From: Elusimicrobiota bacterium
GTDB taxonomy: Bacteria; Elusimicrobiota; Elusimicrobia; UBA1565
Assembly: GCA_016218495.1 (NCBI GenBank)
Contig: JACRDU010000094.1
Location: 42,608 to 106,607 of the forward strand
DNA: 64,000 nt
Reading direction: 5' to 3'
The first letter of the stretch is position 1. Each line of letters begins with the position of its first letter. Shown here in pieces: positions 8,729-28,035 of the stretch. The translations under genes were made by a program, and so were the position numbers. Below the pieces are notes generated by a model that had not been told where the DNA came from, made no database searches, and saw only the letters and a list, made by a program, of their open reading frames with translations.

Positions 8729-9808
8729 ATGGCCGCCGTCCTGGACGAAGAGACGCTTCTCCTGGGCTTCCTCTCCCGCGTCAGCGCCTGCGCCGTCGTC
8801 GTCGTCGGGGAGGACGGGGCGATCGCGACGGTCAACCGGCGCACGGAGGCCCTCTTCGGCTACGAATCCGACGAGCTCCTCGGCAAGCCGGTCGAGGTCC
8901 TCATCCCCGAGGCGCAGCGGGGAGGCCACGCGCGCCAGCGCGACGCCTTCCGCGCCGAGGCCAGGCCGCGCCCGATGGGGACCGGCCGCGACCTGACAGG
9001 GCGCCGCAAGGACGGCTCGCAGGTGCCCGTCGAGATCGCCCTCGACCCCTTCACGGCGGACGGCAAGCGCTTCGTCGCGGCCTACATCCTCGACATCTCC
9101 CGCCGCCGCAACCTGGAGGCCGGCAAGGACGAGGCCGTCTCCCTGGCCAGCCACGAGATCCGCGCCCCCATCACCTCCATCGGCCTGGCCCTGTCGATGA
9201 TGTCCAAGGACATGGCCGACCAGGTCCCCGAGAACCTGCGCCGCATCCTAGCCATCGCCGACCGCGAGTGCCGCCGCCTGCGCCGGCTCGTCGACGACTA
9301 CCTGAACCTCACCAAGCTCGAGGCGGGCGGGGTGCCGTTCGACATGCGCCGCCTGATGCTCGGCCCCGTCGTGCGCCGGGCCGTGGAGGCCGCCGGCGCG
9401 CTGGGCGCCCCGCGCGGCGTGCGCCTGACATTCGACGACCGCGCCCCCGGCGCCGCCGCCTTCATCGACGCCGACCGCCTCGTGCAGGCCGTCACCAACC
9501 TGCTCTCCAACGCGGTCAAGTTCTCCCCGCGGGACGCGACGGTGTCGGTGGCGCTCGAGGAGCGGGGCGCCGTGCTGCGCGTATCGGTCGCCGACCAAGG
9601 GCCTGGCATCCCGGCCGAGTTCCGCCCCCGCATCTTCTCGAAGTTCGCCCAAGCGCAGGGGACGGCGCCCGCCGACCCGCGCGAGAAGGGCACCGGCCTG
9701 GGGCTGAGCCTGGTCAAGGCCGTGGCGGAACGCCTGGGCGGGCGGGCCGGCTTCGACAGCGAGCCCGGGAAGGGCTCGACGTTCTACATCGAGCTTCCTA
9801 AGGCCTGA
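8729..9808 (+). CDS. PAS-domain sensor histidine kinase.
   Basis: N-terminal PAS-like domain (…VNRRTEALFGYESDELLGKPVEVLIPE…). HisKA H-box SHEIRAPITSI. HATPase_c motifs (N-box LLSNAVKFS, G-boxes DQGPGIP / GTGLGLSLVK). Confidence 0.85.
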   Translation: MAAVLDEETLLLGFLSRVSACAVVVVGEDGAIATVNRRTEALFGYESDELLGKPVEVLIPEAQRGGHARQRDAFRAEARPRPMGTGRDLTGRRKDGSQVPVEIALDPFTADGKRFVAAYILDISRRRNLEAGKDEAVSLASHEIRAPITSIGLALSMMSKDMADQVPENLRRILAIADRECRRLRRLVDDYLNLTKLEAGGVPFDMRRLMLGPVVRRAVEAAGALGAPRGVRLTFDDRAPGAAAFIDADRLVQAVTNLLSNAVKFSPRDATVSVALEERGAVLRVSVADQGPGIPAEFRPRIFSKFAQAQGTAPADPREKGTGLGLSLVKAVAERLGGRAGFDSEPGKGSTFYIELPKA

Positions 9809-10853
9809 GCGACCCCGTAGCCAGGTCGGCTTCGTAGCGCTGCGCCGGGAGGGCCCCGGCCGGGAAGTCGGCGTTGAGCAGCACGGAGAGGGCCGGGGTG
9901 AGCAGGTCCCTACGGCTCAGCTCGACCTCGTAGGTCCGCCCCCCCAGCAGACGGGCCGAAGACGCGGCCGGGAAGACCGCGTCGAAGCCTCCCCGGTCGG
10001 CGAAGACGCGCCTCAAGAACTTGTCGGCCTTGCGCTTGGACCAGCGCTGCCGGTCCACCAGCGCGGCGCGCAGGGCCGCCGCGCGCCGCGCGGCCCCGCA
10101 GTCGACGAGCTCCTGCGGCGTGCGCGCCGGACCGCCCTCGCCGTCCAGGGCCTCCTCGAGGGTGCGCGGACAGCGCTCCGGGGACGGAGCGGTGAGCAGG
10201 AAGCCCCGGACGAGCTCCACGGCGGCTTGGCCGTCGGCCGGGTCCGGAGCCGGGGCGGGCGGCGGGGGTAAGACGAAGGCGACGGGTTTGGGCGCCGGCG
10301 GCCTGGCCGGAGCCGGCGCGGGGACCGGCCGGGAGGGCGTCGCCGCGGGGATAGGCGGAGCGGTCGGCGTTACCGGGGCGACCGGGGCCTCGGGCGCCGG
10401 TCGCCCGCCGCGCCAGGCCAACCCCAGCGCCGCCAGGCCGACCAGCCCCGCCACGGCGGCCACGGAGTAAATCGCCCCCCGGATGCCCTTGAGGGCCGCC
10501 TCGGCCGCCTCGAGCCGGGCCCCCAGGCGGGCCAACTCGTCGCGGGCTCCTTCCATGGCCGCGCGTTGGGCTACGACGCTCTCCACGACCTCGAGCTTGA
10601 GCGACAGCGCGTCGCGCTCGTTGGCCCGCCGGGCCGCCGTATAGGCGTCCAGGGCGGCGGCGGAGCGGGCCTGGCTGGCGCCGCGGTCCCTGGTGTCCAT
10701 CAGCACGGCCAGGAGCGGGACCTCCCCCGCCTCCGTCCAACGCGAGTTGTCCGAGTCGAAGCGTTCCTGCGCCTGGACCAGGGTCCCGCGGCCGAAGTCG
10801 GGCAAAGACAGCAGAGTCTCCGCCTCCAGGGGGCCGCAGACGCGCTTGTCCAT
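9798..10853 (-). CDS. Membrane-anchored protein with an N-terminal DUF4339 (GYF-like) domain, one TM, a Pro-rich linker and a C-terminal domain of unknown function.
   Basis: The start is re-derived at MDKRVCGPLEAETLLSLPDFGRGTLVQAQ…W…AGEVPLL (DUF4339-like pattern). TM IYSVAAVAGLVGLAALGLAW, then PAPEAPVAPVTPTAPPIP… It lies 15 nt downstream of the PorV-like gene. The 5' extension of ORF 9798..11279 overlaps that gene in another frame and is rejected. Confidence 0.55.
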   Translation of the reverse strand: MDKRVCGPLEAETLLSLPDFGRGTLVQAQERFDSDNSRWTEAGEVPLLAVLMDTRDRGASQARSAAALDAYTAARRANERDALSLKLEVVESVVAQRAAMEGARDELARLGARLEAAEAALKGIRGAIYSVAAVAGLVGLAALGLAWRGGRPAPEAPVAPVTPTAPPIPAATPSRPVPAPAPARPPAPKPVAFVLPPPPAPAPDPADGQAAVELVRGFLLTAPSPERCPRTLEEALDGEGGPARTPQELVDCGAARRAAALRAALVDRQRWSKRKADKFLRRVFADRGGFDAVFPAASSARLLGGRTYEVELSRRDLLTPALSVLLNADFPAGALPAQRYEADLATGSLRP

Positions 10854-10867
10854 CAGGGCGTAGTACT

Positions 10868-12253
10868 TCACGGGGTTAGGATGCCCGGGCCCTGTTTCAG
10901 ACGCAAGGCCTCGATCAGCTGCCGGCGCTGCGCGTCGGTGGGATGGGCCTCGAACGCCGCGCGCAGCTGCGCCTCGGCCTCCGTCCCGCGGCCTTCGGCG
11001 GCGAGGCAGCGGGCCAACCCGAGGCGGGCGTCGACGACGTCGGGGCCGTTGGAGCCGTCCGCCTCGGCCGCCGCCAGCGCGGCCTCGAAGTCGGCGCGGG
11101 CCGTCCCCAGGTCGCTGCGCACCGCGGCCAGGCGCCCGCGCAGGACCAGCCAGCGCGTGCGTTGGCCCGGCTGCCCGGCTTGGAGGAGCGGCTCGGCCTC
11201 CTGGAGGTGGCGCGCCGCCGCGTCCAGGTCCCCGCCCATCAGCGCGGCTTCGGCCTTGCCCAGGTGCGAGGTCAGCCACAGATGGCGCGACACCTCGGGC
11301 ATCGGCGCCCGCCCGGCGTCGGGGGGCGCAGGCGCCTTAGGCTCCGCCCCGGCCGAGGGCCCCCAGCGCAGGGCCGCGCTGACGCGGTGGGCGCTGCCCA
11401 GGTCGCCGAAGGAGACGAAGGCGTAGTCGAAGCGGAAGGCAGGGGCGACCCAGCCCACGCCGGCGCTCAGGCCCAGCCCGGCGTCGTTGCGCATGTCGTA
11501 GCCCAGGCGCAACGGCAGCCGACCCAGGGCCAGCGTCTCGAGGCCCACCGCCACGACGGGGTCCTCCAGGCGCTTCTTCGTCACGTCGAGCGCCAGCGTG
11601 GTCTGCTGGCCGCGCAGGCTGCGGGTATAGGCCCCGCCCAGGCGCAGCTGGGTGGGCAGCTTCTCGGAGGCGCGCTGGAACTTGACGTCCGGCCCCGCGT
11701 TGCGCAGCGCGGCGCCCAAAGCGGCCCCCGGCAGCGCCGCGGGCCGCCACAGCGCCCCGGCGTCGAAGGCCATCGTCTGAGCGGTGACCGCCTCGATGGA
11801 CTCGCGTATGTACTTCACGGCACCGCCGACGGCCCAGGTCCCGCCGAAGCGCCGGCCGTAGCCTCCCGACAGGGCCAGGTCGGAGATCCCGTAGCTGCCC
11901 AGGCCGGCGCCGGTCCGGTTGGCGATGGTCGTCTTCGGGACGTCGCCGAAGCTCAGGTAGTTGAGCTGGGCCCCCCAGCCCCGGCGCGCGGCGAACGAGG
12001 CGTATTCCTGGCTCACGCCCTCGAAGTACTGGTTGTGCATGAAGACGGCCTCGTTGCGCTCCACGAAGCCCAGCCCGCCCGGGTTGTAGAGCAGGGCGTT
12101 GGCGTCCGAGGCCAGCGCGGTGTAGGCTCCACCGAGCGACACCGGCCGCGCGTCGGCGTCGAGCGAGAGGAACTCGAAGGGGTGCGCGCCCGGCCCGGCC
12201 TGGGCGGGGAGGGCCAGCAGCAGGGCCAGCGCGCAGGCCGCGAGGCGCCTCAT
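10868..12253 (-). CDS. PorV-like (T9SS shuttle / UPF0164-FadL-like) outer-membrane beta-barrel protein with a C-terminal TPR-like helical domain.
   Basis: ATG at 12253..12251 overlaps the TGA of the giant gene (ATGA). Signal peptide MRRLAACALALLLALPAQA. PorV-family N-terminal signature …RPVSLGGAYTALASDANALLYNPGGLGFV…, then beta-strand-rich sequence ending ~res 330. A helical, Ala/Leu-rich C-terminus follows (…GDLDAAARHLQEAEPLL…ARLGLARCLAAEGRGTEAEAQL…). Confidence 0.65.
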   Translation of the reverse strand: MRRLAACALALLLALPAQAGPGAHPFEFLSLDADARPVSLGGAYTALASDANALLYNPGGLGFVERNEAVFMHNQYFEGVSQEYASFAARRGWGAQLNYLSFGDVPKTTIANRTGAGLGSYGISDLALSGGYGRRFGGTWAVGGAVKYIRESIEAVTAQTMAFDAGALWRPAALPGAALGAALRNAGPDVKFQRASEKLPTQLRLGGAYTRSLRGQQTTLALDVTKKRLEDPVVAVGLETLALGRLPLRLGYDMRNDAGLGLSAGVGWVAPAFRFDYAFVSFGDLGSAHRVSAALRWGPSAGAEPKAPAPPDAGRAPMPEVSRHLWLTSHLGKAEAALMGGDLDAAARHLQEAEPLLQAGQPGQRTRWLVLRGRLAAVRSDLGTARADFEAALAAAEADGSNGPDVVDARLGLARCLAAEGRGTEAEAQLRAAFEAHPTDAQRRQLIEALRLKQGPGILTP

Positions 12254-15200
12254 CGGATGACCCCGATCTTCACCACGACGGGCTCCGCGCCCGGGCTCTT
12301 GATGACGGCGAAGTAGCCGCCCGACGCCACGTCCTCCCCGCTGGAGTTGCGCGCGTCCCACTGCACGGTGCCGGTACCCGAATCGGTGCCGAAGGAGGCC
12401 ACCTCGCTGCCGGTCAGGGTGTAGATGGTGATGCGCACCGAGGCCGGCAGGTTGTCGAAGAGGATGCCCGACAGTGGGTCGCCGCGGCTGAAGGCCCGGC
12501 CCTCGTCGGGGTTGCCCCCGCTGGGCTTGTACGGGTTCGGATAGACGGTCACCGAGGAGAGGTTCGCGGCCACGGCGCCAATCAGCGAGAAGAAGCTGAA
12601 GTGCGGGGTATGCCCCGTCACGGTGCGCGCCGTCTCGTCCACCGACGCCGAGAACTCCTTCTTCCACTTGCCCGAAGGGGCGTCGTAGGTGACGATGCTC
12701 AGGTTGGCGGCCCGCAGGGTCGTGCCGTCCACCACGCCGTCCCCGTCGCTGTCGGGGTAGTTGAAGACCAGGGCCGCCGTCTGCCCGCCGGCCAGCAGGC
12801 TCTGCCCGCTGCCCAGGTTCACCTCGAGCGTCGCCCCGATGGAGACCACATCGGCGGCGTGGGACGGCGCGCCGGCCGGGTTGACCTGGACGGTGACCAC
12901 CGTGGTCGAGGCGCTCACCGCGCCGGCCGGGATGAGCACCTTGGTGACCACCGCGCTGCCCGACTCGGCGGCCGCTATGGTGTTCGACACGGCGTTGTTG
13001 ACGGTCTGCTCCTTCTTGACCCGCCCCCCGCCCTGGTCGGTCTCGCGCACCTCGAAGTTGACCGGGTCGACCGACACGGAGACGAGGCCGGGCGAGGGGT
13101 CGGAGTTGGAGAAGACGTCCGTGGCCACGGCGCGCAGGTCGTACTCCGCCGGCGCCAGGCCGGTCACGTCCCAGTGCACGAAGTAGGGGTGGTCGGCGTC
13201 GGGGTTCGCGTGCTGGAGGTTCGCCGCCGGTATGGCCGTCCAGGCCGCGCCGCTGGAGGCCCGGTACTGGAACAGGACCTGGCGCGTGCGCTCCGGCTCG
13301 CCGCTGACCAGCTCCGCCATCACCAGCACGCGGTTGCCGCTGATGCGCTTGCCCGAGGCCGGCACCTTGATGGCGGCGCGCACCCCGGACAGCGAGCCCA
13401 GGGCCGGCGCCGCCGTCACCGCCCCCGGCCCGGCCTCCTCGCGCCCGCAGCGGTTGAGGGCCCGCAGTCCGAACTTGTAGACGACGCCGTTGGCTAGCGC
13501 CCCGGTCGTGTACGAGGTCGCCGACGCCCCGAGCGCGGCCAGCGGCGCCGCATAGTCGACCGTCCCCGTGCCGCTGTCGTAGTAGAGCCGGTAGCCGGTC
13601 AGGCCCGGGTCCGGGGAGGAGACCCAACTCAGGCGGATGACGCTGCCCGGCAGGCTCTCCGCGCTCAGCTCGCCGGCCCCCAACGGGGTGCTGGGCAAAG
13701 TGACGAACGACACCACGGCGTCGAAGGCGGTGAAGGCGCCGCCCAAGCCGCGGTTGCGCACCCGGTAGTAGTAGGTCGAACAGCCCTGCAGGCCGGCATC
13801 GGCGTGGACGGCGGTCGTCCCGGTGAAGACCGAGGCGTAGGAGGCCGAATCGCTCGAGCGCTGCACCTCGGCGAGGGTCCCGGCGGGGTTGCCGTTGAGC
13901 CCCCAGCTCAGGGTGGCGCTGGTCGCGGAAACGGCCGCGGCCGTGCCCGCCGGCGGCAGCGCGGGGGTGTAGACCGTGGCGGCGGCGGAGAGGGCCCCCG
14001 CCCGGGTCTCGGCCACCGCCGCTACGGCGAGGCCTACGGCCGAGTTCGGGGACAGCCCCGTCTGCACGAAGGCCGGCGCCGAAGGCGCGGCCAGCAGGGC
14101 GCCCGTGGCCGGAACGCGGGCCTGGTAGCCCTCGGCCCCGGCGACGGCGGCCCAGGTCCAGGAGACCGACGACGCCCCGAGCGCCGCCCCCGAGGGAGCG
14201 CCCGGCGCGCCCGGCGCGGCCCCGCCGAAGTCCCAGTTGCGGTTCCCGCCGGAATTGACGCTGTCGCCGGACGCGGCGCGGATGGGAATCCCGCCGGAGG
14301 CGTCGGAGTCCGAGACCTGGGCGCGGGAGACCGCCGCCGTGCCGGTGACCACGAGGTACCACGGGGACCCTGCCGTCGAGCTGCGCAGGCGCAAGCGCGG
14401 CGTCAGGCCGGGGGCGCCCAGGGACAGCGCGGCCACGGTCAGCGTGCTGCCGGCCTGCACGGTGACCGAGGACTGGGACGCCGCCTCCAGCGCGTTCAGG
14501 GCCGTGAAAGGCGAGAACCTCAGGCGCTGTTCGCCGGTGCCGGTCAGGCGCAGGGTGCCGGCGGGGAACTGCGCGGGACCTCCGGGCTCCAGCCAGTCCC
14601 CGCGCACGCGGTGGGTGAAGGCGCCTCCGTCGAAAGCCCCGGTCGTTATGGTGACGCCTCCGTTCAGCTCCAGCGGACCCAGCGCGCGCAGATAGGCGAT
14701 GCCGTTGGTTCCGAAACCGACCTCCAGGTTCTTGAAGGGGTTCCCCGCCAACGGGGCCACCGAGGCCCTGTTCGGCGCGCTCATCTGCATGAAGGTGACG
14801 GTGCTGGCCTGCGCGTTGAAGTACCCGCCGGTCTGGGTCCAGGCCCCGATGCGCAGGTTTCCGGCCCCGCCCAAGGTGAAGGTGCCCGCCAGCAGCGAGA
14901 AGGAATGCGCCTCGACCGTGGCCCCGTGGACGAAGGCCGCCCCGCTGGAGTTCGTCACCTCGACATGCGGGAGCTGGGGACGGCCGGTGCCCGTGACGAC
15001 TTGATAGCTGGACCCGTAGAATTCCAGCATGTCGCCTGCGCTGTAGGCGCAGCAATACGGGCTGTCGATGCGCATGTTCCCGCCCACGCGCACGCGCCCG
15101 TTCCCCCACTGGAACCGCCCGTACCCGCTCATCAGCACGTCGCCGGTCACGGTCACCGTGGCATTGGATATCTGGAAGACCCCGGTCGTGAGCTGGACCG

Positions 15201-18200: not shown

Positions 18201-21200
18201 GCGCCGACACGCCCCAGCCGCCCAAGGCATAGATGCGTCCGCCCGCGGCGGCGGCCGACAGCCCGTAGCGTGCCGACGCCATCGCGGTCTTGGCCGTCCA
18301 GGCCTCCCCGTGCCAACCCGCGTAGACGCCGTCCTTGGCGATGTTCGTGCCCGAAAGGCCGGCCCCTAGGTTCGTGAAGGCGGGCGTCGGGGAGTAGGCC
18401 GCGACGACAAGGGTCGTGGTGGAGATTTCATCAAAGACGATGGCGGTCGGGGCCTGGATCAGCGTGATGGTCGAGCCCAGCGCGGTGTAGGGGCCGGAGG
18501 GCACGGTGGACACGCGGGCGTAGTAGCTAGTGTTGGCCGAAAGGCCTGAGAATGCCGCCGAGAGGTTCAGGGTCGCAGACGAAGTCAGCGTCCCCGAGAA
18601 GTCGGAGGCGGTCGAGAGCTGGGCCGTGTATGGAGTCTCGGACGGGAAGCCTGAGGCCCAGTTCACGCTCACGCTGGTGCCGAAGACGCCGGTGAACTGG
18701 CCGGAGGAGATGGTGGGGGGGTACATCCAATCGACGCGGCCCGAGGGGTCGTTCTCGAAGCCGGGGCCCGACTTGGAGCCGCGATAGTCCCGCATGGTGA
18801 TGCGCGAGCCGGCGCCCAGCAGGCTGCCGTCGATGTTGACGCTGACGGCGGCCAGGAATTCCATCGCGGTGATGGTGGCCACATGCGTGCCGCCTTGGAA
18901 TTGGACTCCGGTGGAGGCCGTCACGGTCATCGACGCGATGCTCAGAGGCCCATTGGCGGTGGCGTCGACAAGCAGTCCGACCGCCAAGGCGTTCAAGGTA
19001 GTCGAAGCCAATGTGATGCCTACGCTCCCGCCTCTGAGCTGCACGGCCCGCCCGGAGCCTCCCGTGGCGTGGAAGGCGGTCCGCTCCGCCAGGGTGCCCG
19101 TTCCCGTGAAGATGTCGAGGGCGTCCGGGCCGGCGACATAAGAGTCGCGCAGGCTGATGCCGGAGGAACCCGCCACCATGAAGGCTGGCACCGAACCCGA
19201 GCCGGTGACGGTGCTGCGGGCGATGAGGGCCCGCTGGCCGAACTCGGCATAGACCCCGTAGCCCCCCCCCAGGAGCCAGGAATCGGACACCCATGTGTCC
19301 GGCGCTGAGTAGAGGTAGAACGCCTTGGAAGTCGGGCCGGAAGCCGCCGCCGTGCTCTTTGACAGGGTGTTGGAGCTGGCCGCGAAGCCGAAGGTGACGG
19401 CGTTGCCCGCCAAGCTGTAGAGATAAGAGCGCGAGATCGTGTTCGTCGAGGCGTTGTCTAGGTAGAGCGCCGAGAATCCCGCGCTTCGGGCCGTGACGGT
19501 CGAACGGTCGATCAGGTTGCCGTTGGCGTTGGCGCCCAGGAAGGCCGCATAGCCCGTCGTGTTGATGATCATGTTCAAGACGATGCTGTTGGAGGCCGCC
19601 GTCGTCATGTACAGCGCGTAGGCCGCCGGAGCGTCGGACAGCAGCGTGCTCTGCTGGATGGTGTTGGCGTTGGCGCCGTTGCTAAGGGCCATAGCCGTGC
19701 CGCTCGACGAATAGATGTAGCAGGATGTGATGCTGTTCGAGGAAGAGGCGTCAATCGACGCTCCTCCCCCCGTGCCGTAGGCGGCCAAAGTCGAGCCCTG
19801 TACCAGGTTCCCGTCCGAGAGGTCCGTCAGGCTGAGAGCGCTGCCTATGACGCTGCGCAGCACGCTGCCAGATACCGTGTTAAACGAGGAAGACTGGGCG
19901 ACGAAGGCTGAGAGATTCCCGGCGATTACGGTGGAGTCCTCGATTCGGTTCCAGTTCGCGCCGGCGATGAGGGTGGCGGCGATGCCCGTGGCGCTGTAGA
20001 TGTAAGCCCGCGAGACGGTGCTGTGGGTCACCCCCGCCATCGCCAGGCCGTATTCCGCGGTCCCCGTGGTCGTGATGGTGCTCTCTACCACGCTATGGTA
20101 GGAGCCGCCCATGGACAATCCCCGCCCCACCGAGGAACGCAGGAAGCTGCGGGCGATGGTGGTCGAGGAGCTCCCGGCGGATATCGAGGCCGCGTAGTTT
20201 CCAATGGCGCCGGCCGTCGCCGTGCTCCGGTCCATCACGGAATTGACGGCCCCGAGCATGACGGCCACGCCCGAGGTGTTGTGAGCCGAGCTTTCAAGGA
20301 TGGTGTTGTCCGGCCCGGAGAGCCAAAGGGTGTGGTTCGCCGCGGAGGCGTTGCTGAAGGTGCTGCGATAGAGGGTGTTGTGGTGGGCGCTGGCGCCGTT
20401 GAAGTAGACCGCTCGTCCCACGCCGACCGCCACGGTCGAGAACTCGACACGGCCGTAGGACTCCATGTCGATAGCGGCCACCACGACCTGGGTGCTCGAC
20501 TCGACAAGCACCCTTGAGACCGTCACATAGCCCGATGTGACCGCTATGCCCCAGTTGACCGCCGCGCTGGGGGCGATGCGCAGGGTTTCGATGCTGACGC
20601 TCGTGGCCTTGACCTGGAACGCCGCGGTGGAGGCGGCTGGCGGGTCGACGGTGGGGGGAGAGGACAGGGCGGTGTCGCCCAGGATGCGCAGGCGGTAACC
20701 GTTGGTCGCCTTGTTGGCGACCGTAACCTGTTCTTGATAGGTGGCGCTGTCGCGGATGACGACGCAGGTCTCGGCGCTCAGCGACGCCGGGACTGCCGCC
20801 AGCGCCGCGGTGAGCGTCGTAAAGGGGGCTCCGGCCTTGGCTACGTCGAGGCTCAGGGCGCAGCCGGGCGGCGCGGGGTACGCTGTCGTCCGAGTCGAGC
20901 CCAGGACGCCGTAGGCCGTCTCGACACCCACGGAATTGCGGGCCTGGACGCGGAAATACCAGGTCGTGAGCGCGGACAGAGAGGTCATCGTCGAGACGAG
21001 GGAAGTCTGCCAGGAGCCGGTCTGCGAGGAGGCTCCGGAATTGAAGTCGGAGGCCGTCGACAGATGAACGCGGAACTCGGTGCCGCCGGGGTTGCCGTTG
21101 GCCAGCCACTGCACGGCGACCGAGGTGGCGAAGACGCCGATGAAGGCGGGGGCGGCCGTGGAGGGGACGGCGGCCCAGGTGTAGGTCGAGAAGGCGGAAC

Positions 21201-24200
21201 TCTCCCCGGTCTCGACGCCGGCCCTGTTGCGCGCCTTGGCCTTGAACGAGTACTGCGTGTTCGGCTGCAGCCCGCTGAAGTGCCGCGCCCGCGCCATGTC
21301 GAACGACCAGGCCGTGCTGGTCACCGCCACGTCGGTGCCGCCTCCGGCCCCGTAGAGCTGGCCGTTCAAGACCGCCAGCCCGAACGCCGTGCGCGCCGGG
21401 GCCAGGCTACTGTACCTGGCCCAGGCGTCGACGGCGGGGTCATACTCCTCCACCAGCCCGCTGGCCGCGACGGGGTCCCGGCCCCCGACGACGTAGATCT
21501 TGCCGCCCACGGCCGCCGAGCGCCCCGCGTAGCGGGCCGGCGACGGCAAGACCGTCGGGGAGGACCAGGAGCCCAAGCCGGCGTCGAAGGCGGCGTGCAG
21601 GGTGGAGGGGACCCCGGAGGCCGTGCTACCCGCCACCAGGTAGACCTTCCCGCCCAGCGCGGCCGCGGCGCCTATCCCCCAGGCCGTCGGCACCGCCGTC
21701 CCGGTTGCCCAGGCACCCGCCGCCGGGTCGAAGGCCTCGTTGGCGCTCATCAGGTTCGACCCGCTCCAGCCGCCCAGCACGTGGACGCGGCCGTTGAGCT
21801 CGACGGCGCCCGCATAGGAGCGCGCCGTCGGCATCGCCGTCTTGCTGCTCCAGGCGTTGGCTGCGATGTCGTAGGCGTAGTTCGTCGTCAGCACCGGCCC
21901 GCCGCTGGCCCCGCCGACGACGTAGATGGTCCCCCCGACCCGCGCGGAGGCGAAGTCGGCGCGAGTGGCGGGCATGGCGGCCAATGCGCTCCAGGCCCCC
22001 GACGAGGGGTCGTAGGCCTCGGCGGAGGAGATGTAGGTGGTGCCGTCGTGGCCACCGTAAGCGTAGAGCCGGCCGGCGTAGGCGCAGAGGCCCGAGTTGT
22101 TGCGACCGGTGCTCATCGGGGGCAGCCACGCCCAGGCGTCGGACTTCCAGCCAGCGTACGCCCCGTCGCGGGCGATGTTGACCCCGCTCTGCCCGGCGTC
22201 TGAGCGCAGCGCCCCGGCCCCGGCGGCGTGGGCCCAGGCCACCAGGCTGTGCGAGGAGACCTCGTCGAAGAAGACCGCCGTCGGCGACTCGATGAGGGTG
22301 ACCGTGGAGCCCAGGGCGGTGAAGGGCCCGGAGAGGCCGGTGGAGACGCGCGCGTAGTAGCTGGTGTTGGCGCTCAAAGCCGAAAAGGATGCGGCGAGGT
22401 TCAGGGTCGTCGACGAGGCCAGGGTCCCCGAGAAGTCGGCAGCAGTAGACAGTTGAGCGGTATATTGGGTCCCGCCGGGGAAGCCCGACGCCCAGCCCGC
22501 CGTCAGGGCGGAGGTCCCCACCGAGCTCAAGCCCACGGCGGACAACATCCCGGGCTCCGCCACGAAGACGCTGCTCTCCGTGCCCCAGCCGCTGCGCGCC
22601 AGGCCGCCGTCGATGGTCTGCAGGCGGATGTAGTAGGTCGTCCCGGAGCGGATGTTGGCGGAGGCCGTGCCCAGGTCCACGCGGAAGTAGAGCCCGTGCT
22701 TGGCCGTCGCGTCCCCCGGCCAGACCCGGTAGGCCGGGCGCGGGTACGGGGTGTAGAGCGGCGAGCCGTTGTTCCAGGACACGGCGAAGCTCCCCGGCGA
22801 GGTCACGCGCAGGCCGTCGGGGGAAAGGGTCATCGGCGCGCTGGCCATGACCAAAGCGTAGGACAGGCTGGCCGTGGCCGAGGCCCCGTCGTAGGCCCCG
22901 GCGGCCCACTTGACCGTCATCGTCCCCCCGCCGGGCGCCAGGTCCAGGGTGACCGTATCCACGGCCGGGGCGCTGGGCGGCGCGTTGTACGGGGCCGCGT
23001 CGTTAAGCAGCAGGACTTCGTCCGTGCCTTGGTCCCAGTTGGCCACCAGCGCGTCCAGGTCCCCGTCGCCGTCGTAGTCCGCCCAAGCCGCGTCGACGCT
23101 GGCGTCGCCGGTCTCGGTCAGCAGGATTTTGGCGAAGACGCCACCGTCGTTGCGCAGCAGGTACTCGCGGGAATTCGTGCCGGACCCCGCCACGAGGATG
23201 TCCGCGTCCCCGTCGGCGTCGTAGTCGCCCACGGCCACGGCATAGGACGAAGAGGTGCCGGGGATGAGGGTCTTCACGAAGGCGCCGCCCGTGTTGCGCA
23301 GCAAGGCGATGTCGTCGAACCAGCCGTTGGCGACCACGGCGTCGAGGCGTCCGTCGCCGTCGAAGTCGCCCCAGGCCACATCTGCCGAGGAGCCTGCGGT
23401 ACCAGACAGGGTTACCGGGGTCAAGGTCCCGCCGTCGTTGCGCAAGAGGACCTCGTCGCCGGAATCGTTGGCCAGGATGGCGTCGAGGTCCCCGTCGTTG
23501 TCGTAGTCGCCCCAGGCGATGGCCTTCGTGTTGCCGCCGGTGCCTTCGATGGTGACGGCGCTCAGGACCCCGCCGTCGTTGCGCAGCAGGATTTCGTCGG
23601 CATCGGCCGGCGTCGCCTGCGCCAGCAAGGCGTCCGGGTCGCCGTCGTTGTCGTAGTCGCCCCAGGCCACGGCCACGCCCGACCCCGCCGTGCCGGGGAT
23701 GGTGACGGGCGCCCAGGTCCCCGCGTCGTTGCGCAGCAGGACGGCCCCCGAGTTGTCGCTGTTGGTGGCCAGCAGGGCGTCGAGGTCCCCGTCCCCGTCG
23801 GCGTCGGCCCAGGCCACGGCCCCGGCGTTGCGGGCGGAGGAGGTGATGACGACCTGGGTCAAGGTCCCGGCGCCGTCGTTGCGCAGGATGAGGGCGTCCA
23901 TGTTGGCGCTGTTGGCCACGAAGGCGTCCAGGTCCCCGTCCTTGTCGTAGTCCCCCCAGGCGACCCCGAAAGAGATTAGGCCGCTGCCCAGTTGGGTGCG
24001 CACGGAGAACAGCGGTGTGCGCGTGGAGCCCAGGACGGTGAAGGGGCCGGCCGGGGCCGTGGCCACGCGGGCGTAGTAGGTGGCATAGAGCGCCAAGCCC
24101 GTGAAGGTCGCCGAGAGGTTGAGCGTCGCCGACGAGGCCACGGTCCCCGAGAAGTCGGAGACTGAGGAGAGCTGGGCGGTGTATTGGGTGCCAGCCGGAT

Positions 24201-25332
24201 AGTTCGAGGCCCAATTGACCGTCAGGCTGGTGCCGAACACCCCCGAGAACGGGGCTGACGCGATGAAGGCGTAGGCGTCCTTCAGCACCCGGTAGTCCGC
24301 CCCGTTGCCCAGGCCGCTCAGGTAGACCCCGCCCGAGCCGTCGACAGCGACGCCGCGCGCCTCGCTGTTGACCGAGCCATCCGCATAGAGCGTCGTCGAG
24401 ACCAGGGTCCCGTCGGCGTCGTAGCGCCAGAGTCGGAAGTCGTTGGCCGACGCGCCGGCGGAGCTTCCCGCCGCGAAGACCCGGCCGCCGGCGTCCACAG
24501 CCACCGCATAGCCGAAATCGCCGCCGCTGCCCCACGTGCGCGACCAGGCCAAGGTCCCGGAAGGGCTGTACTTGAGGAGCAGGAAGTCGGGGCCGCTATA
24601 GCCGACGACATAGACATTCCCCGAAGCGTCGATGGTCACGCCCCGGGCCCGCTCCGATTGGCCCGTCGTGTAAGTGCTGAGCCAGACGATGTTCCCCGAG
24701 GGGTCGAACTTGATGGTCTTGATGTCGTCATTGGCATCGCCGTGGTGGCCCACCGCGTAGGCGTAGCCGGAGGCGTCGACGGCAAGGGCCCCCATTCCGT
24801 CGTTGAGGCCGCTGTCGTAGGAGCGGCTCCAGACCACGGCGCCCGTGGAGGCGTATTTGATCAATCGCCAGTCCGAACCGCTGGTGCCGCCGACGATGAT
24901 GGATCCGTCGGCAGCGCTACCCGCCCCCCAGGCCAGGTCCGTCCCCCCGCCGTCGTAGCTCCCCGTCAAGGCCACGCCGCCGGTGGAGGTGAACTTCACG
25001 AAGCGAAAGTCCAGGTTCGAGCCGTTGAAGGTCTGCCCCGCCGCGTACACGTTCCCCGCGGCGTCCAGCGAAAATCCCCCGGCCGCGTCGAGGTTGCCGC
25101 TGTCATAGGTCCAGGTCGACAGAATGACGCCGGCGGACGAGAGGCGGACGATGTTGATGTTGCTGCCGCTGTTGCCGGAGGTATAGACGGCGCCGGAGGC
25201 GTCCAAAGCCAACCCGTGCGCCGCCTCGGAATCCCCGCCGTCCCAGACCAGGTCCCAGAGCGGCGCCGCGGCGGCGTAATTAGGGAAAGCCGATGCCAGC
25301 AGGGACGCTAATAGGAAAGCCCGGGGTGACAT
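12250..25332 (-). CDS. Giant (4360 aa) secreted multidomain surface protein / adhesin-like T9SS cargo.
   Basis: Signal peptide MSPRAFLLASLLASAFPNYAAAA. SBBP-type beta-propeller repeats (DASGNVYVVG…). Seven FG-GAP/VCBS repeats (WGDYDNDGDLDA…RNDGG). Three 6-7-blade Kelch propellers (…YAYGGHDGT…, …YALGGW…). A PbH1-type right-handed beta-helix (repeated S.xNTI..S / NxxxxN ladders). >12 FN3-like modules with the recurring motif TAQLSTxSDFSGT…YYARV. The C-terminal 80 aa match the T9SS type-A CTD (…VTVYPNPYKP…VRITIYTLTGSEVASF…WDARNSSGEDVASGGYFAVIKS…VVVKIGVIR). Confidence 0.85.
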   Translation of the reverse strand: MSPRAFLLASLLASAFPNYAAAAPLWDLVWDGGDSEAAHGLALDASGAVYTSGNSGSNINIVRLSSAGVILSTWTYDSGNLDAAGGFSLDAAGNVYAAGQTFNGSNLDFRFVKFTSTGGVALTGSYDGGGTDLAWGAGSAADGSIIVGGTSGSDWRLIKYASTGAVVWSRSYDSGLNDGMGALAVDASGYAYAVGHHGDANDDIKTIKFDPSGNIVWLSTYTTGQSERARGVTIDASGNVYVVGYSGPDFLLLKYSPSGTLAWSRTWGSGGDFGYAVAVDAGGRVFAAGSSAGASANDFRLWRYDADGTLVSTTLYADGSVNSEARGVAVDGSGGVYLSGLGNGADYRVLKDAYAFIASAPFSGVFGTSLTVNWASNYPAGTQYTAQLSSVSDFSGTVASSATLNLSATFTGLALYATYYARVATAPAGPFTVLGSTRTPLFSVRTQLGSGLISFGVAWGDYDKDGDLDAFVANSANMDALILRNDGAGTLTQVVITSSARNAGAVAWADADGDGDLDALLATNSDNSGAVLLRNDAGTWAPVTIPGTAGSGVAVAWGDYDNDGDPDALLAQATPADADEILLRNDGGVLSAVTIEGTGGNTKAIAWGDYDNDGDLDAILANDSGDEVLLRNDGGTLTPVTLSGTAGSSADVAWGDFDGDGRLDAVVANGWFDDIALLRNTGGAFVKTLIPGTSSSYAVAVGDYDADGDADILVAGSGTNSREYLLRNDGGVFAKILLTETGDASVDAAWADYDGDGDLDALVANWDQGTDEVLLLNDAAPYNAPPSAPAVDTVTLDLAPGGGTMTVKWAAGAYDGASATASLSYALVMASAPMTLSPDGLRVTSPGSFAVSWNNGSPLYTPYPRPAYRVWPGDATAKHGLYFRVDLGTASANIRSGTTYYIRLQTIDGGLARSGWGTESSVFVAEPGMLSAVGLSSVGTSALTAGWASGFPGGTQYTAQLSTAADFSGTLASSTTLNLAASFSALSANTSYYARVSTGLSGPFTALGSTVTLIESPTAVFFDEVSSHSLVAWAHAAGAGALRSDAGQSGVNIARDGAYAGWKSDAWAWLPPMSTGRNNSGLCAYAGRLYAYGGHDGTTYISSAEAYDPSSGAWSALAAMPATRADFASARVGGTIYVVGGASGGPVLTTNYAYDIAANAWSSKTAMPTARSYAGAVELNGRVHVLGGWSGSNLMSANEAFDPAAGAWATGTAVPTAWGIGAAAALGGKVYLVAGSTASGVPSTLHAAFDAGLGSWSSPTVLPSPARYAGRSAAVGGKIYVVGGRDPVAASGLVEEYDPAVDAWARYSSLAPARTAFGLAVLNGQLYGAGGGTDVAVTSTAWSFDMARARHFSGLQPNTQYSFKAKARNRAGVETGESSAFSTYTWAAVPSTAAPAFIGVFATSVAVQWLANGNPGGTEFRVHLSTASDFNSGASSQTGSWQTSLVSTMTSLSALTTWYFRVQARNSVGVETAYGVLGSTRTTAYPAPPGCALSLDVAKAGAPFTTLTAALAAVPASLSAETCVVIRDSATYQEQVTVANKATNGYRLRILGDTALSSPPTVDPPAASTAAFQVKATSVSIETLRIAPSAAVNWGIAVTSGYVTVSRVLVESSTQVVVAAIDMESYGRVEFSTVAVGVGRAVYFNGASAHHNTLYRSTFSNASAANHTLWLSGPDNTILESSAHNTSGVAVMLGAVNSVMDRSTATAGAIGNYAASISAGSSSTTIARSFLRSSVGRGLSMGGSYHSVVESTITTTGTAEYGLAMAGVTHSTVSRAYIYSATGIAATLIAGANWNRIEDSTVIAGNLSAFVAQSSSFNTVSGSVLRSVIGSALSLTDLSDGNLVQGSTLAAYGTGGGASIDASSSNSITSCYIYSSSGTAMALSNGANANTIQQSTLLSDAPAAYALYMTTAASNSIVLNMIINTTGYAAFLGANANGNLIDRSTVTARSAGFSALYLDNASTNTISRSYLYSLAGNAVTFGFAASSNTLSKSTAAASGPTSKAFYLYSAPDTWVSDSWLLGGGYGVYAEFGQRALIARSTVTGSGSVPAFMVAGSSGISLRDSYVAGPDALDIFTGTGTLAERTAFHATGGSGRAVQLRGGSVGITLASTTLNALAVGLLVDATANGPLSIASMTVTASTGVQFQGGTHVATITAMEFLAAVSVNIDGSLLGAGSRITMRDYRGSKSGPGFENDPSGRVDWMYPPTISSGQFTGVFGTSVSVNWASGFPSETPYTAQLSTASDFSGTLTSSATLNLSAAFSGLSANTSYYARVSTVPSGPYTALGSTITLIQAPTAIVFDEISTTTLVVAAYSPTPAFTNLGAGLSGTNIAKDGVYAGWHGEAWTAKTAMASARYGLSAAAAGGRIYALGGWGVSALSTNAEYDPQANAWTAKAAMPSASNALGAVSLGGKIFAVGGEDSGGLLSVHQRYDPQTNSWSSAAALPSARTGVGAAVLGGKIYSLGGLGGSGYITAVDAYDPATDSWGSRGPLARINHAMAAAEVGGRLYSLAGYDGVTLSSGTRYDPGLDSWSAVSSAPFAVSYPAFAAIGGKIYLFGGSATAGPIGVTQEYDPSADAWALRTSLPTTRGRAAGAVIAGRAYVVGGVNGPALAANEEFDPGTARQFTGLSPNTQYTFTAKARNAAGTETGTVTASTYTAAAVPTGSAIAMVGGSSLTLSWGANGNPAGTEFQASVSTMGAFPSEAVGDWTAGATSATFTGLLASATYYARVRARNAVGVTTDYDAIQSTRTGVLTAWSLSSAPVSGVSVTGLALNWGSSFPVGTQYAAQVATAADFSGTLTSSATLNLSAAFSGLSANTSYYARVSTVPSGPYTALGSTITLIQAPTAIVFDEISTTTLVVAAYSPTPAFTNLGAGLSGTNIAKDGVYAGWHGEAWTVKAPLPAARYALAAAAANGRLYALGGWTTASVTANTEYDPFTDAWTTKAPLPAAANALAAVALGGAVYAVGGENSGGLLSGNRRYDPGANAWTSLQPLPSSRTGMGLAVLGRSLVGLGGLGASGYIAAVSAFDADAGAWSARASLPGINHAMAAAEVGGRLYSLAGYDGVTLSSGMRYDPGLDSWSTVSGAPFAVSYPAFAAIGGKIYLFGGSATAGPIGVTQEYDPSADAWTLRTGLPTARGRAAGAVIAGRAYVVGGTNGATLATHESYDPGTARQFTGLSPNTQYTFTAKARNAAGTETGTVTASTYTAAAVPTGIAFTMVSPSSLTFSWGSGGNPSGTQFQAAVSTLAGFGAETAGAWSADAFSASFAGLTPEATYYARVRARNAVGTATEYAASASTWTSEGPATRYWDGGGTSINASEAANWVGDRVPRSGDSVVFSTPLVKFTFFDLPLSLSSLTLSGSYGGPAVVATTGLVVGTVQLTTGVFQISNATVTVTGDVLMSGYGRFQWGNGRVRVGGNMRIDSPYCCAYSAGDMLEFYGSSYQVVTGTGRPQLPHVEVTNSSGAAFVHGATVEAHSFSLLAGTFTLGGAGNLRIGAWTQTGGYFNAQASTVTFMQMSAPNRASVAPLAGNPFKNLEVGFGTNGIAYLRALGPLELNGGVTITTGAFDGGAFTHRVRGDWLEPGGPAQFPAGTLRLTGTGEQRLRFSPFTALNALEAASQSSVTVQAGSTLTVAALSLGAPGLTPRLRLRSSTAGSPWYLVVTGTAAVSRAQVSDSDASGGIPIRAASGDSVNSGGNRNWDFGGAAPGAPGAPSGAALGASSVSWTWAAVAGAEGYQARVPATGALLAAPSAPAFVQTGLSPNSAVGLAVAAVAETRAGALSAAATVYTPALPPAGTAAAVSATSATLSWGLNGNPAGTLAEVQRSSDSASYASVFTGTTAVHADAGLQGCSTYYYRVRNRGLGGAFTAFDAVVSFVTLPSTPLGAGELSAESLPGSVIRLSWVSSPDPGLTGYRLYYDSGTGTVDYAAPLAALGASATSYTTGALANGVVYKFGLRALNRCGREEAGPGAVTAAPALGSLSGVRAAIKVPASGKRISGNRVLVMAELVSGEPERTRQVLFQYRASSGAAWTAIPAANLQHANPDADHPYFVHWDVTGLAPAEYDLRAVATDVFSNSDPSPGLVSVSVDPVNFEVRETDQGGGRVKKEQTVNNAVSNTIAAAESGSAVVTKVLIPAGAVSASTTVVTVQVNPAGAPSHAADVVSIGATLEVNLGSGQSLLAGGQTAALVFNYPDSDGDGVVDGTTLRAANLSIVTYDAPSGKWKKEFSASVDETARTVTGHTPHFSFFSLIGAVAANLSSVTVYPNPYKPSGGNPDEGRAFSRGDPLSGILFDNLPASVRITIYTLTGSEVASFGTDSGTGTVQWDARNSSGEDVASGGYFAVIKSPGAEPVVVKIGVIR
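15440..18650. repeat. Intragenic tandem duplication, two copies of ~1650 nt (~550 aa each: FN3-Kelch propeller-FN3-FN3).
   Basis: Near-identical DNA at a 1650-nt offset: 16741-16980 vs 18391-18630, 15841-16260 vs 17491-17910, 15680-15840 vs 17330-17490. The flanks (15351-15680 vs 17001-17330) are ~70-75% identical. A 107-aa protein stretch LSTASDFSGT…GEAWT occurs twice identically. Duplicated shadow ORFs appear in the track (16880 vs 18530; 16781..17299 vs 18527..19294). Confidence 0.85.
22950..24000. repeat. Array of 7 FG-GAP-type coding repeats (~150 nt period) within the giant gene.
   Basis: Protein repeats WGDYDKDGDLD / WADADGDGDLD / WGDYDNDGDPD / WGDYDNDGDLD / WGDFDGDGRLD / VGDYDADGDAD / WADYDGDGDLD, each followed by …LLRNDGG…. 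The periodic signature also shows in shadow ORFs 22228..23979(+) and 23003..24535(-). Nucleotide coordinates are approximate. Confidence 0.6.
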
Positions 25333-25352
25333 GGTCTCGGCGCGCCGCCCTC

Positions 25353-25381
25353 AGTATTGGGCCGCGACCACCGGCTGTCAA
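25353..25381 (-). promoter_or_regulatory. Putative sigma70-like promoter for the giant cargo gene (TTGACA-17-AATACT).
   Basis: Minus-strand reading: TTGACAgccggtggtcgcggcccAATACTgagggcggcgcgccgagaccATG. The -35 is a perfect TTGACA and the -10 matches 4/6. The ~20-nt leader contains GAGGG. Confidence 0.35.
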
Positions 25382-25446
25382 CGAGAAATTATCCTGCGAA
25401 TGACAGCTGAAAGCGTCGAAGATGTCATCCGTCAGGGAGCCCGACA

Positions 25447-25475
25447 TTGACAGGGAAGGACCTGCCGGTTAGATT
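25447..25475 (+). promoter_or_regulatory. Putative sigma70-like promoter (TTGACA-17-TAGATT) driving a leaderless or near-leaderless transcript of the 25481 gene.
   Basis: ttgacagggaaggacctgccggttagattctggcATG. The ATG begins 6 nt after the -10 hexamer, and there is no room for an SD. Confidence 0.4.
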
Positions 25476-25480
25476 CTGGC

Positions 25481-25981: not shown

Positions 25982-26680
25982 CTATTTCTCGCCTTCGGCC
26001 ACGTACACGTAGCCGAAGCCCTTCACCGCCATGATGCGCTTCTGCAGCATCACCGGCAGGGCCTTGCGCAGGCGGTTCATCAGGATGTCCAGCGCGCGCG
26101 AGAGCTCGGGGCGCTGGCGGCCCTCCACCACGGAGAACAGCAGGTCCTTGTTCACCGGCTCCGGGCTGCGCTCGAGCAAGGCGTAGAAGAGCTCGAAGGT
26201 CTTCGGCGTCAGGCTGGCCACCTGCAGCTCGCGGAAGAAGACCTTGCGCGTCTCCATCTGCAGGGTGACATCGCCCTTCTTGAAGAGGTTGAGGTCCAGC
26301 TCCCGGCGGCGGAACACGGCGCGCAACGTGGCCAGCAGCTCGGCCGGGTTGTCGTTCTTTTGGACGAAGTAGTCGGCCCCCCACTCCAGCCCCATGATCT
26401 TGTCCTTGCGGTGGGCCGTGATCATGACGATGGGCGTCTTTCCCAGGGCGGGGATGGAGCGCACCATCTTGCAGACCTCCATCCCGTCCATGTCGGGCAG
26501 GCCCAGGTCCAGCAGGATGCAGTCGGGCAGGGCCTTGCGTGCCAGTTCGATGGCCTCGGCCCCGGTCTTGGCCAGGTAGAGGTCCTGGTAGCCGGCGTGC
26601 TTGAGCCAGACCTTCAGCAGCTCCTGCCACGCCGGGAAGTCCTCGACGATGAGGATCTTCTGGGTACCTCCCGATTCCAT
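25982..26680 (-). CDS. OmpR/PhoB-family two-component response regulator (REC plus a winged-helix DNA-binding domain).
   Basis: KILIVEDF…DCILLDLGLPDMDG…TPIVMITA (phospho-acceptor Asp context), and C-terminal trans_reg_C-like …KTFELFYALLERSPEPVNKDLL…VKGFGYVY. No cognate kinase is adjacent. Confidence 0.85.
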   Translation of the reverse strand: MESGGTQKILIVEDFPAWQELLKVWLKHAGYQDLYLAKTGAEAIELARKALPDCILLDLGLPDMDGMEVCKMVRSIPALGKTPIVMITAHRKDKIMGLEWGADYFVQKNDNPAELLATLRAVFRRRELDLNLFKKGDVTLQMETRKVFFRELQVASLTPKTFELFYALLERSPEPVNKDLLFSVVEGRQRPELSRALDILMNRLRKALPVMLQKRIMAVKGFGYVYVAEGEK

Positions 26681-27420: not shown

Positions 27421-28029
27421 ATGAGCCAAGACATTTTGAACATGCGCGCGCGATTCTTCGGCGCCGCAGCGCTCTGCGCCCTGTTCGCGCTTTCCGCCTG
27501 CACCCCCAAGAAGACCGTCAAGAAGACCACCGGCCTCAGAGACGACGCCGCCGTCGCCGCGGCGGGCGCGGGGACCGAAGAGGCCGTCACCTTGCCCAGC
27601 GCCGCCGACGTCGAGGAAGCGCGCATCCGGGGCAAGGAGTTCGCTTCTGCCGCCGAACTGCAGCCGGTCCGCTTCGACTTTGACGCCTATTCGGTGGCCG
27701 AGGAGGGACGCATCGCGCTGCGGGCGAACGCCGATTACCTCAAGCAGCACCCGGACCTGGAAATCCTGGTCGAGGGCCACTGCGACGAGCGCGGGACCAC
27801 CGAGTACAACCTGGCCCTCGGGCAGAAGCGCGCCAAGGCGGTGCGCGAATACTACATCAGGCTGGGCGTGCCGGGCGGCAAGCTGGCCACCATCTCCTTC
27901 GGCGAGGAGCGCGGCGCCTGCGCCGAGCCGACCGAGGACTGCTGGGGCCGCAACCGCCGCGCCGAGACCAAGATCCGCGCCCAGGTCTCCTCGGCCCCTT
28001 ACAACTCGGGCTCGTCGGTCGTGCGCTAG
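27421..28029 (+). CDS. pal: Peptidoglycan-associated lipoprotein Pal (OmpA-family C-terminal domain).
   Basis: GGAGG lies 5 nt before ATG 27421. Lipobox ALFALSAC. OmpA-like domain …VRFDFDAYSV…LEILVEGHCDERGTTEYNLALGQKRAKAV…. Confidence 0.8.
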   Translation: MSQDILNMRARFFGAAALCALFALSACTPKKTVKKTTGLRDDAAVAAAGAGTEEAVTLPSAADVEEARIRGKEFASAAELQPVRFDFDAYSVAEEGRIALRANADYLKQHPDLEILVEGHCDERGTTEYNLALGQKRAKAVREYYIRLGVPGGKLATISFGEERGACAEPTEDCWGRNRRAETKIRAQVSSAPYNSGSSVVR

Positions 28030-28035
28030 CCGGCG

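Follow-up and report, generated by a model that had tools for sequence, protein, structure and literature searches.

A giant protein with a T9SS-type C-terminal domain and its own PorV/PorQ-family barrel: a candidate two-gene surface display module of Elusimicrobiota

Is a giant secreted protein held on the cell surface by an outer-membrane barrel that is encoded directly behind it and serves no other cargo? This question is raised by a stretch of 64,000 nucleotides (nt) from an Elusimicrobiota bacterium (assembly GCA_016218495.1, contig JACRDU010000094.1, positions 42,608 to 106,607), which was analysed at its full length and is called the window here (G+C content about 70%). A gene caller based on codon-position G+C content predicted three consecutive minus-strand genes in it (Table 1): a gene for a protein of 4360 amino acids (aa), termed the cargo, which ends in a C-terminal domain (CTD) resembling type IX secretion system (T9SS) sorting domains; a gene for a 461-aa PorV-like barrel protein with a TPR domain (gene 2); and a third gene (gene 3). 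The first-pass annotation of this DNA had proposed that the tightly coupled cargo and barrel form a cargo-specific shuttle or anchor module instead of relying on a generic PorV. Our analysis leads to the reading, which we hold with moderate confidence, that a PorV/PorQ-family barrel of its own probably keeps the cargo on the cell surface, and that this two-gene display module is widespread in Elusimicrobiota.

The three genes proved to be real, and the coupling of the first two can be read directly from the junction, ...atc cgA TGA ggc..., where the ATG of gene 2 (position 12253) shares 4 nt with the TGA of the cargo gene, just as the first-pass annotation had noticed. The same arrangement recurs far beyond the window. 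The named homologues of the barrel all come from Elusimicrobiota or from unclassified metagenome-assembled genomes (MAGs) labelled only 'bacterium', and comprise many proteins with a TPR domain, some with an OmpA domain and some bare barrels of ~300 aa. In five loci, whose barrels are only 42-57% identical, a Kelch/fn3/beta-helix protein of 1570-5888 aa lies directly upstream. A scan of one genome per species added 66 loci (L012-L077), again exclusively from Elusimicrobiota or unclassified MAGs; several of these genomes possess multiple barrel paralogues, one genome (CP096137.1, with locus L052) is closed, and one locus (L066) belongs to an Elusimicrobiaceae MAG. Together with the window and six non-duplicate loci from earlier look-ups, and after removal of three loci from repeated contigs, which left 63 of the 66, the analysed sequence amounted to 1.09 Mb. 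This sample is centred on barrels and covers ~20 kb per genome, and the counts obtained from it are suggestive, not genome-wide.

Nearly every barrel gene in these loci is preceded by an open reading frame (ORF) ending in ...G.xQWDxKNxxGxDVASGGYxAVIxSPGxxxVxKKxxIIR-stop, with a 4-nt overlap as the commonest spacing. When a hidden Markov model (HMM) built from the cargo tails was run over the 1.09 Mb, 69 of the 70 CTD genes were found to have a barrel within 400 nt downstream, and in the sole exception (L015) the barrel lies immediately upstream. Barrels without an upstream CTD gene were located at contig edges or were short, low-scoring fragmentary matches, and the flanks of these barrel-centred loci contained no CTD that lacked a barrel. 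The cargo-barrel coupling is not a product of chance. Furthermore, the matrices of pairwise identity of CTDs and barrels are correlated (r = 0.67, a value reached in 0 of 2000 Mantel permutations), which fits inheritance and duplication of CTD and barrel as a unit; such a correlation is no proof of contact between the two. All-against-all clustering of the flank ORFs yielded no conserved third gene beside the pair, but only shadow ORFs and local orthologous synteny, and we therefore delimit the module to two genes. This phylum-wide synteny and module-wise inheritance, together with the fold evidence below, strongly support the idea of a cargo-specific barrel over a generic PorV.

The product of gene 2 is identical to an Elusimicrobia bacterium protein that NCBI labels 'PorV/PorQ family protein', and in this respect the barrel is already known. 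Its family membership, also proposed in the first-pass annotation, is evident from PorV_fam (NF033709; 159.2 bits over residues 26-294, cut-off 90) and, in Pfam, from UPF0164 (27.1 bits, cut-off 21.4), with the Pfam PorV model just short of its cut-off (26.4 versus 27); among the more specific models PorQ outscored PorV (110 versus 63 bits). A model of the fusion protein computed with AlphaFold2 (AF2) from 120 homologues, with a predicted local distance difference test (pLDDT) score of 92.4, starts with a signal peptide and a helical plug, followed by the 14 strands at residues 67-297, from which a 25-aa linker leads to seven helices (residues 323-453). These helices correspond to the ~130-aa TPR-like domain noticed earlier: scanned alone, the tail exceeded the cut-offs of TPR_16 (39.4 bits versus 32.7), TPR_19 (33.3 versus 25) and TPR_12 (33.0 versus 30.1). 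The best Foldseek match of the model was PorV from the translocon bound to the RemA CTD (8gl6_F, E 1.5e-14). FadL and TodX ranked next, and a profile of the barrel family searched against the sequences of the PDB found PorV at 6e-20. On the window barrel neither a PorP_SprF match nor, at E <= 0.1, a DUF560/Slam match was obtained.

The C-terminal extension is variable across the family. A tail of 110-200 aa is present in 42 of the 69 full-length barrels and a short one in 6, while 21 end without a tail; of the 39 tails that were scanned, at least 31 were recognized as TPR. Other variants are an OmpA domain (L050) and a CarboxypepD_reg domain combined with OmpA (L082, where the partner is a canonical 174-aa CTD protein). 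Because the peptidoglycan-binding OmpA domain occupies the same position in paralogues, the TPR domain is presumably periplasmic. A divergent barrel of 668 aa (L077, 467..2473) bears a caspase-like Peptidase_C14 domain in its tail, and a gene for a protein combining C14 and FGE-sulfatase domains adjoins another module (L008, 11417..13285). Clan-CD peptidases and FGE-sulfatase folds occur in the T9SS (PorU, PorK/GldK).

The CTD, a beta-sandwich at the very end of the cargo, shows the YPNP, G-x-Y and K-hydrophobic-terminal motifs and contains an insertion (KPSGGNPDEG...SG) typical of the paired subfamily of Elusimicrobiota. By sequence, it was closest to the PorZ model, which it matched over the last 100 positions with an E value of 8e-10. 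The AF2 model, built on 46 CTD sequences (pLDDT 90.5), has seven strands, and the three top matches among PDB folds were all T9SS CTDs, namely those of PorZ (5m11; E 1.2e-6, 27% identity, root-mean-square deviation 2.7 Å), NucA in a translocon complex (8glk_D) and PorU (6za2). Four homologous cargo CTDs scored 23.0-25.5 bits with the type-A model TIGR04183, at or just above its cut-off. Of the type-B models, TIGR04131 gave no match to the window CTD at E <= 10, and CHU_C scored 18 bits against a cut-off of 27. Judged by its modelled structure, the domain is a genuine T9SS-type fold of a divergent subclass; the first-pass description of it as a canonical type-A domain was right about fold and motifs and has to be given up with regard to 'canonical', the type-A scores (given below) remaining under their cut-offs.

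The cargo itself displays the signal peptide and the many adhesion-type modules that had been described. Besides a Sec-type N-terminus, it has SBBP/delta-60-like (beta-propeller-like) repeats, FG-GAP/VCBS repeats (about six), three fn3-flanked Kelch propellers and a right-handed beta-helix region. In an alignment of 26 cargoes, a fn3/Ig stalk of ~550-650 aa preceding the CTD was common to all 26 and ended in the consensus T-G-x-T-x-H-F-S-F-F, while the N-terminal heads differed and were unrelated among themselves, which gives the impression of a shared base bearing interchangeable tips. The head domains are of the binding type (fn3 in 23, Kelch in 8 and NosD/beta-helix in 4 of the 26, plus FG-GAP, NHL and Big_2), and no enzyme domain was found in these heads. 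Complete cargoes are 853 to 4366 codons long (median ~1670), and minimal cargoes of 126-175 aa exist that consist of a signal peptide and little beyond the CTD. The mini-modules formed by the latter with their barrels (Table 1), such as the 126-aa CTD protein and the 303-aa barrel of L010, are natural minimal pairs suited to experiments on CTD-barrel recognition. The window cargo gene harbours a tandem duplication of 1650 nt (a 550-aa unit of fn3, Kelch propeller and fn3; 15524..18661), whose units share 91% DNA identity (segments 77-91%), and older copies near 21205..22495 (third copy, 73%) and at 23944..24214 (fourth segment, 63%). The pattern of identities indicates a recent internal expansion, as far as can be judged from an assembled sequence; in this region the assembly of the MAG could itself have altered the copy number by collapse or expansion.

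In the reading that we favour, Sec would export the giant cargo with its variable binding head (Kelch, VCBS, beta-helix), conserved fn3/Ig stalk and T9SS-type CTD, and the co-translated 14-strand barrel would bind the uncleaved CTD, by which the cargo would be kept exposed on the surface. This anchoring is modelled on the pairs PorQ-PorZ, PorV-PorU and SprF-SprB. The periplasmic extension of the barrel (TPR, or OmpA or CarboxypepD_reg plus OmpA in paralogues) would link the anchor with the cell wall or with partners in the periplasm, and would thereby take the role that PorE has for PorP, but fused into one polypeptide.

Several elements of this scheme have counterparts in the T9SS. The CTD proteins PorZ and PorU are retained on the surface by PorQ and PorV, respectively (PMC5562754), and these sub-complexes of the Porphyromonas gingivalis attachment complex (PMC5562754, PMC10947112) likewise consist of a surface protein on a 14-strand barrel of the PorV/PorQ family. 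The resemblance extends to the components, as the window CTD is nearest to the PorZ CTD in both sequence and fold and the barrel scores best with the PorQ and PorV models. Unlike in P. gingivalis, however, each cargo in Elusimicrobiota, a different phylum, has its own translationally coupled barrel gene; the cargoes are giant adhesin-like proteins and not components of the machinery; and the barrels carry a TPR, OmpA or CarboxypepD_reg-OmpA extension that is probably periplasmic, the window barrel missing the PorQ and PorV equivalog cut-offs. The second precedent is provided by SprB-SprF and PG1035-PorP-PorE, in which a dedicated FadL-type barrel encoded beside a giant type-B CTD cargo anchors this cargo (PMC9143113), and in which PorE, composed of TPR, beta-propeller, CarboxypepD_reg and OmpA domains, bridges PorP to peptidoglycan (PMC9143113, PMC12204202). 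Here, too, a dedicated barrel gene adjoins the gene of a CTD cargo, and domain types of PorE (TPR, CarboxypepD_reg, OmpA) recur in the Elusimicrobiota barrels. In contrast to PorP and SprF, the window barrel belongs to the PorV/PorQ family and lacks a PorP_SprF match; in contrast to type-B cargo, the CTD has no TIGR04131 match and only a sub-threshold CHU_C score; and in contrast to PorE, the domains are fused to the barrel instead of being encoded separately. Dependence on SprA is established for SprB.

A number of observations weigh against anchoring by a dedicated barrel. The contact between CTD and barrel is one that we infer, and adjacency and co-inheritance fit a role of the barrel as translocator equally well. 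The barrel missed the equivalog cut-offs of both PorV (NF033710, 63.2 bits versus 250) and PorQ (NF033711, 109.8 versus 220), and the window CTD did not attain the type-A models TIGR04183 (15.9 bits, cut-off 23) and PF18962 (12.2, cut-off 27). Moreover, no T9SS core gene (SprA, PorKLMN, PorU) was detected in the 64-kb window, where an NCBIfam scan of the unannotated genes gave no T9SS match, and none among the large flank ORFs of the other loci; the large non-CTD flank ORFs that were scanned for SprA-like proteins turned out to be oligopeptidase A, CoA-dehydratase activase and similar proteins. A search with the CTD profile returned no PorU- or PorZ-like Elusimicrobiota proteins, but the selection comprised short proteins only and is uninformative on the presence of a T9SS. 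Because core genes were not seen in the window or the sampled flanks, the analogy with T9SS anchoring may be one without its translocon.

This leads to the alternative of a self-contained two-partner system, in which the barrel-TPR protein would be a dedicated outer-membrane translocator and subsequently an anchor, independent of the T9SS translocon; we consider it unlikely. Slam (type XI) secretion relies on a DUF560 14-strand barrel with a periplasmic TPR domain, encoded beside its cargo. By analogy, the TPR domain would capture the CTD or the unfolded cargo in the periplasm, as proposed for Slam/type XI or TpsB-TpsA. The strict 1:1 pairing, the translational coupling and the lack of a further conserved neighbour are consistent with such a system, but type-B cargo is also paired 1:1 with its cognate PorP barrels and yet requires SprA (PMC9143113). 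Similarly, the domain logic is that of Slam, with a 14-strand barrel and a presumably periplasmic TPR domain next to a dedicated cargo with a conserved C-terminal domain, and 3 of the 39 scanned tails match TPR_Slam (up to 1.3e-5); however, the barrel is clearly PorV-like and without DUF560 homology, its TPR domain is C-terminal instead of N-terminal, the cargoes are not lipoproteins, and a third of the barrels are tailless, so that the TPR domain cannot be essential. The minimal modules with a 126-aa cargo, containing little beyond the CTD, also suit a two-partner system, as does the phylogenetic position: Elusimicrobiota form their own phylum outside the Fibrobacterota-Chlorobiota-Bacteroidota (FCB) group, the T9SS is described as FCB- or Bacteroidota-specific (PMC12398890, PMC12365241), and no literature was found that connects Elusimicrobia or Elusimicrobiota with PorV or with type IX secretion. 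The missing core genes point in the same direction, although their absence is one at the scale of loci and not of genomes. Against a translocator speaks, finally, that PorV/FadL-type barrels are plugged and narrow, and that within the T9SS they bind cargo but do not conduct it (PMC5562754, PMC9143113).

A classical T9SS shuttle, in which the barrel would bind its cargo only transiently, collecting it from an SprA-type translocon and passing it to a PorU-like sortase for removal of the CTD and linkage to lipopolysaccharide, appears improbable to us. It would agree with PorV from a substrate-bound translocon as the best structural match of the barrel and with the relatives of the CTD that attain the type-A cut-off, but the barrel scores higher with PorQ than with PorV, and the CTD is nearest to those of PorZ and PorU, which are uncleaved and barrel-bound. 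In addition, a shuttle is shared by many cargoes, with about 110 free PorV molecules per 2000 substrates (PMC5562754), against one barrel gene per cargo gene here; wall-binding OmpA tails suit a static anchor and not a mobile shuttle; and a PorU-like C25 peptidase was not seen among the 26 cargoes or in the flanks. That the barrel is a coincidental neighbour, a FadL-like uptake channel for hydrophobic compounds functionally unrelated to the cargo, was rejected as most implausible: FadL and TodX are indeed the next-best structural matches, but conserved synteny contradicts this view (adjacency in 69 of 70 cases with barrels only 40-55% identical, and 4-nt overlaps), and the family-level HMM assignment is to PorV/PorQ and not to FadL.

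Returning to the dedicated surface anchor, the suggestion of the first-pass annotation that the arrangement is new appears to hold for the PorV/PorQ-family version, but in general terms SprB-SprF with PorE, PorZ-PorQ and PorU-PorV are precedents (PMC9143113, PMC5562754). Apparently not yet described in the searchable literature are the strict pairing with giant CTD proteins, the CTD subclass with its conserved insertion, the PorE-like fusion and the phylum-wide spread outside the FCB group.

Table 1 Features of the window and mini-modules of other loci (positions of the window unless a locus is named)
Feature	Position	Strand	Remarks
Cargo gene, 4360 aa	12250..25332	-	NCBI MBI5596405.1, 'VCBS repeat-containing protein'
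Conserved C-terminal stalk of the cargo, fn3 + Ig-like	12553..14220	-	~aa 3705-4260; ends in TGHTPHFSFF
CTD of the cargo, T9SS-type beta-sandwich	12253..12552	-	aa 4261-4360; YPNP, GGY and KIGVIR-COOH motifs
Gene 2, PorV/PorQ-family barrel-TPR gene, 461 aa	10868..12253	-	ATG overlaps cargo TGA (ATGA)
Barrel domain	11363..12178	-	aa 26-297; N-terminal plug segment, then 14 strands
C-terminal TPR domain	10895..11287	-	aa 323-453; seven helices
Gene 3, 357 aa	9798..10871	-	GTG start; MBI5596403.1, hypothetical, HY928_09980
PAS-HisKA-HATPase histidine kinase	8729..9808	+	convergent with gene 3
Promoter-like site TTGACA-17-AATACT	25353..25381	-	10/12 matches; ~20 nt before cargo ATG
Divergent ORF, 165 aa	25481..25978	+	
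OmpR-family response regulator	25982..26680	-	Response_reg 84.2 bits, Trans_reg_C 43.7 bits, both above cut-off
Mini-module (minimal cargo + barrel)	L010 9624..10912		
Mini-module (minimal cargo + barrel)	L059 9495..10993		
Mini-module (minimal cargo + barrel)	L052 2758..4154		
Mini-module (minimal cargo + barrel)	L082 3546..5727		

For gene 3, the first-pass annotation had to be revised in several respects. It is not separated from gene 2 by 15 nt; its GTG overlaps the TGA of gene 2 by 4 nt (ccGTGAag). The ATG at 10853 was rejected as the start because the homologues begin with MKYYA and the 357-aa NCBI protein matches exactly. Nor could the DUF4339/GYF identity be upheld: the GYF_2/DUF4339 match extended over positions 1-48 of the 50 in the profile but reached only E 0.22 and 11.8 bits (cut-off 25.8), neither Pfam nor NCBIfam gave a significant family, and the pattern YY..GP..TLV..W.EAG.VP.L, conserved in seven homologues, is only suggestive of GYF. 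The protein has a conserved N-terminal segment of ~60 aa, a coiled region, one transmembrane helix (~aa 134-153), a Pro-rich linker and a C-terminal domain of ~140 aa with two invariant Cys. This layout would place the N-terminal domain in the cytoplasm and, beyond the Pro-rich spacer, the C-terminal domain in the periplasm, and it recalls envelope-spanning proteins of the TonB, TolA and GltJ type, a lead whose sole support is a weak GltJ match over a low-complexity region.

Relatives of gene 3 are rare: a collection of 5.8 billion clustered proteins contains only seven. A homologue follows the barrel in L078 (56% identity) and in L079, the two nearest orthologous loci, the one in L078 (5055..6623) having its periplasmic C-domain in tandem duplicate (522 aa versus 357 aa). 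A 41%-identical homologue in GCA_016196755.1 is encoded apart from the module of that genome, and the downstream genes of more distant modules are unrelated to gene 3. Given the few relatives, one of them away from the module, and the unrelated genes behind distant modules, gene 3 is best regarded, on this comparison, as an addition specific to its lineage and of uncertain relation to the module, and its inclusion in the module by the first-pass annotation is not supported. Downstream of the bare barrel of the mini-module locus L010 (10909..15578), four to five genes run in the same direction, their starts overlapping or lying close together; their products (509, 458, 341 and 208 aa) have no Pfam family, and they may be a lineage-specific extension of the module.

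Upstream of the operon, promoter-like sites were found on both strands of the spacer 25333..25480 (four sites, compared with 0.6 expected in shuffled sequences). The first-pass annotation had placed a leaderless-type promoter divergently upstream, which the sites on both strands correct. The minus-strand site would imply a short cargo leader without a clear Shine-Dalgarno sequence, and the plus-strand site abuts the ATG of the 165-aa ORF. This ORF is the divergent gene; the OmpR-family regulator (receiver and winged-helix Trans_reg_C domains) upstream of the operon, earlier described as a divergent orphan, lies on the operon strand and is not obviously an orphan, given the PAS histidine kinase nearby. 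The 3' ends of the kinase gene and gene 3 overlap by 11 nt, and no terminator-like site was found between them. Other loci show no link of the regulator or the kinase to the module.

About 2 kb upstream of the operon (27436..30164, plus strand) follow genes for a Pal-like OmpA lipoprotein, a CpoB/YbgF-like coiled-coil and TPR protein and a TolB-like propeller, assignments that were made by eye from the translations. The Pal- and CpoB-like genes are possibly relevant, as the barrel tails resemble Pal- and CpoB-type domains. Unrelated to the module, a minus-strand gene (51723..54788) encodes an unusual fusion protein of 1021 aa with two near-identical acidic repeats, a membrane metalloprotease-like middle part (weak HExxH-type match) and a C-terminal subtilisin/mycosin-like domain.

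Elements that have been regarded as FCB or Bacteroidota machinery, T9SS-type CTDs and PorV-like barrels, are combined in an unrelated phylum into a strict module of one barrel per cargo, with PorE-like wall-tethering domains fused to the barrel. Its co-evolving pairs, which number more than 50 and include cargoes of only ~126 aa, make the module a compact natural model for CTD-barrel recognition, and it suggests a possible origin of PorQ-PorZ-type anchoring and PorP-PorE tethering. It is conceivable, if rather doubtful, that Elusimicrobiota lack a T9SS translocon and motor altogether and that the pair is a self-sufficient, modular system for export across and anchoring in the outer membrane. 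If this were true, the pair could represent the ancestral unit that supplied the FCB lineage with PorV, PorQ, PorP and the CTD signals for recruitment into the T9SS, and it would explain the display of the unusually many giant proteins of this phylum; should the T9SS core prove absent, a new outer-membrane secretion route would have been found. Elusimicrobiota are enriched in giant uncharacterised proteins (PMC11573180), for which the module presented here is a likely display mechanism.

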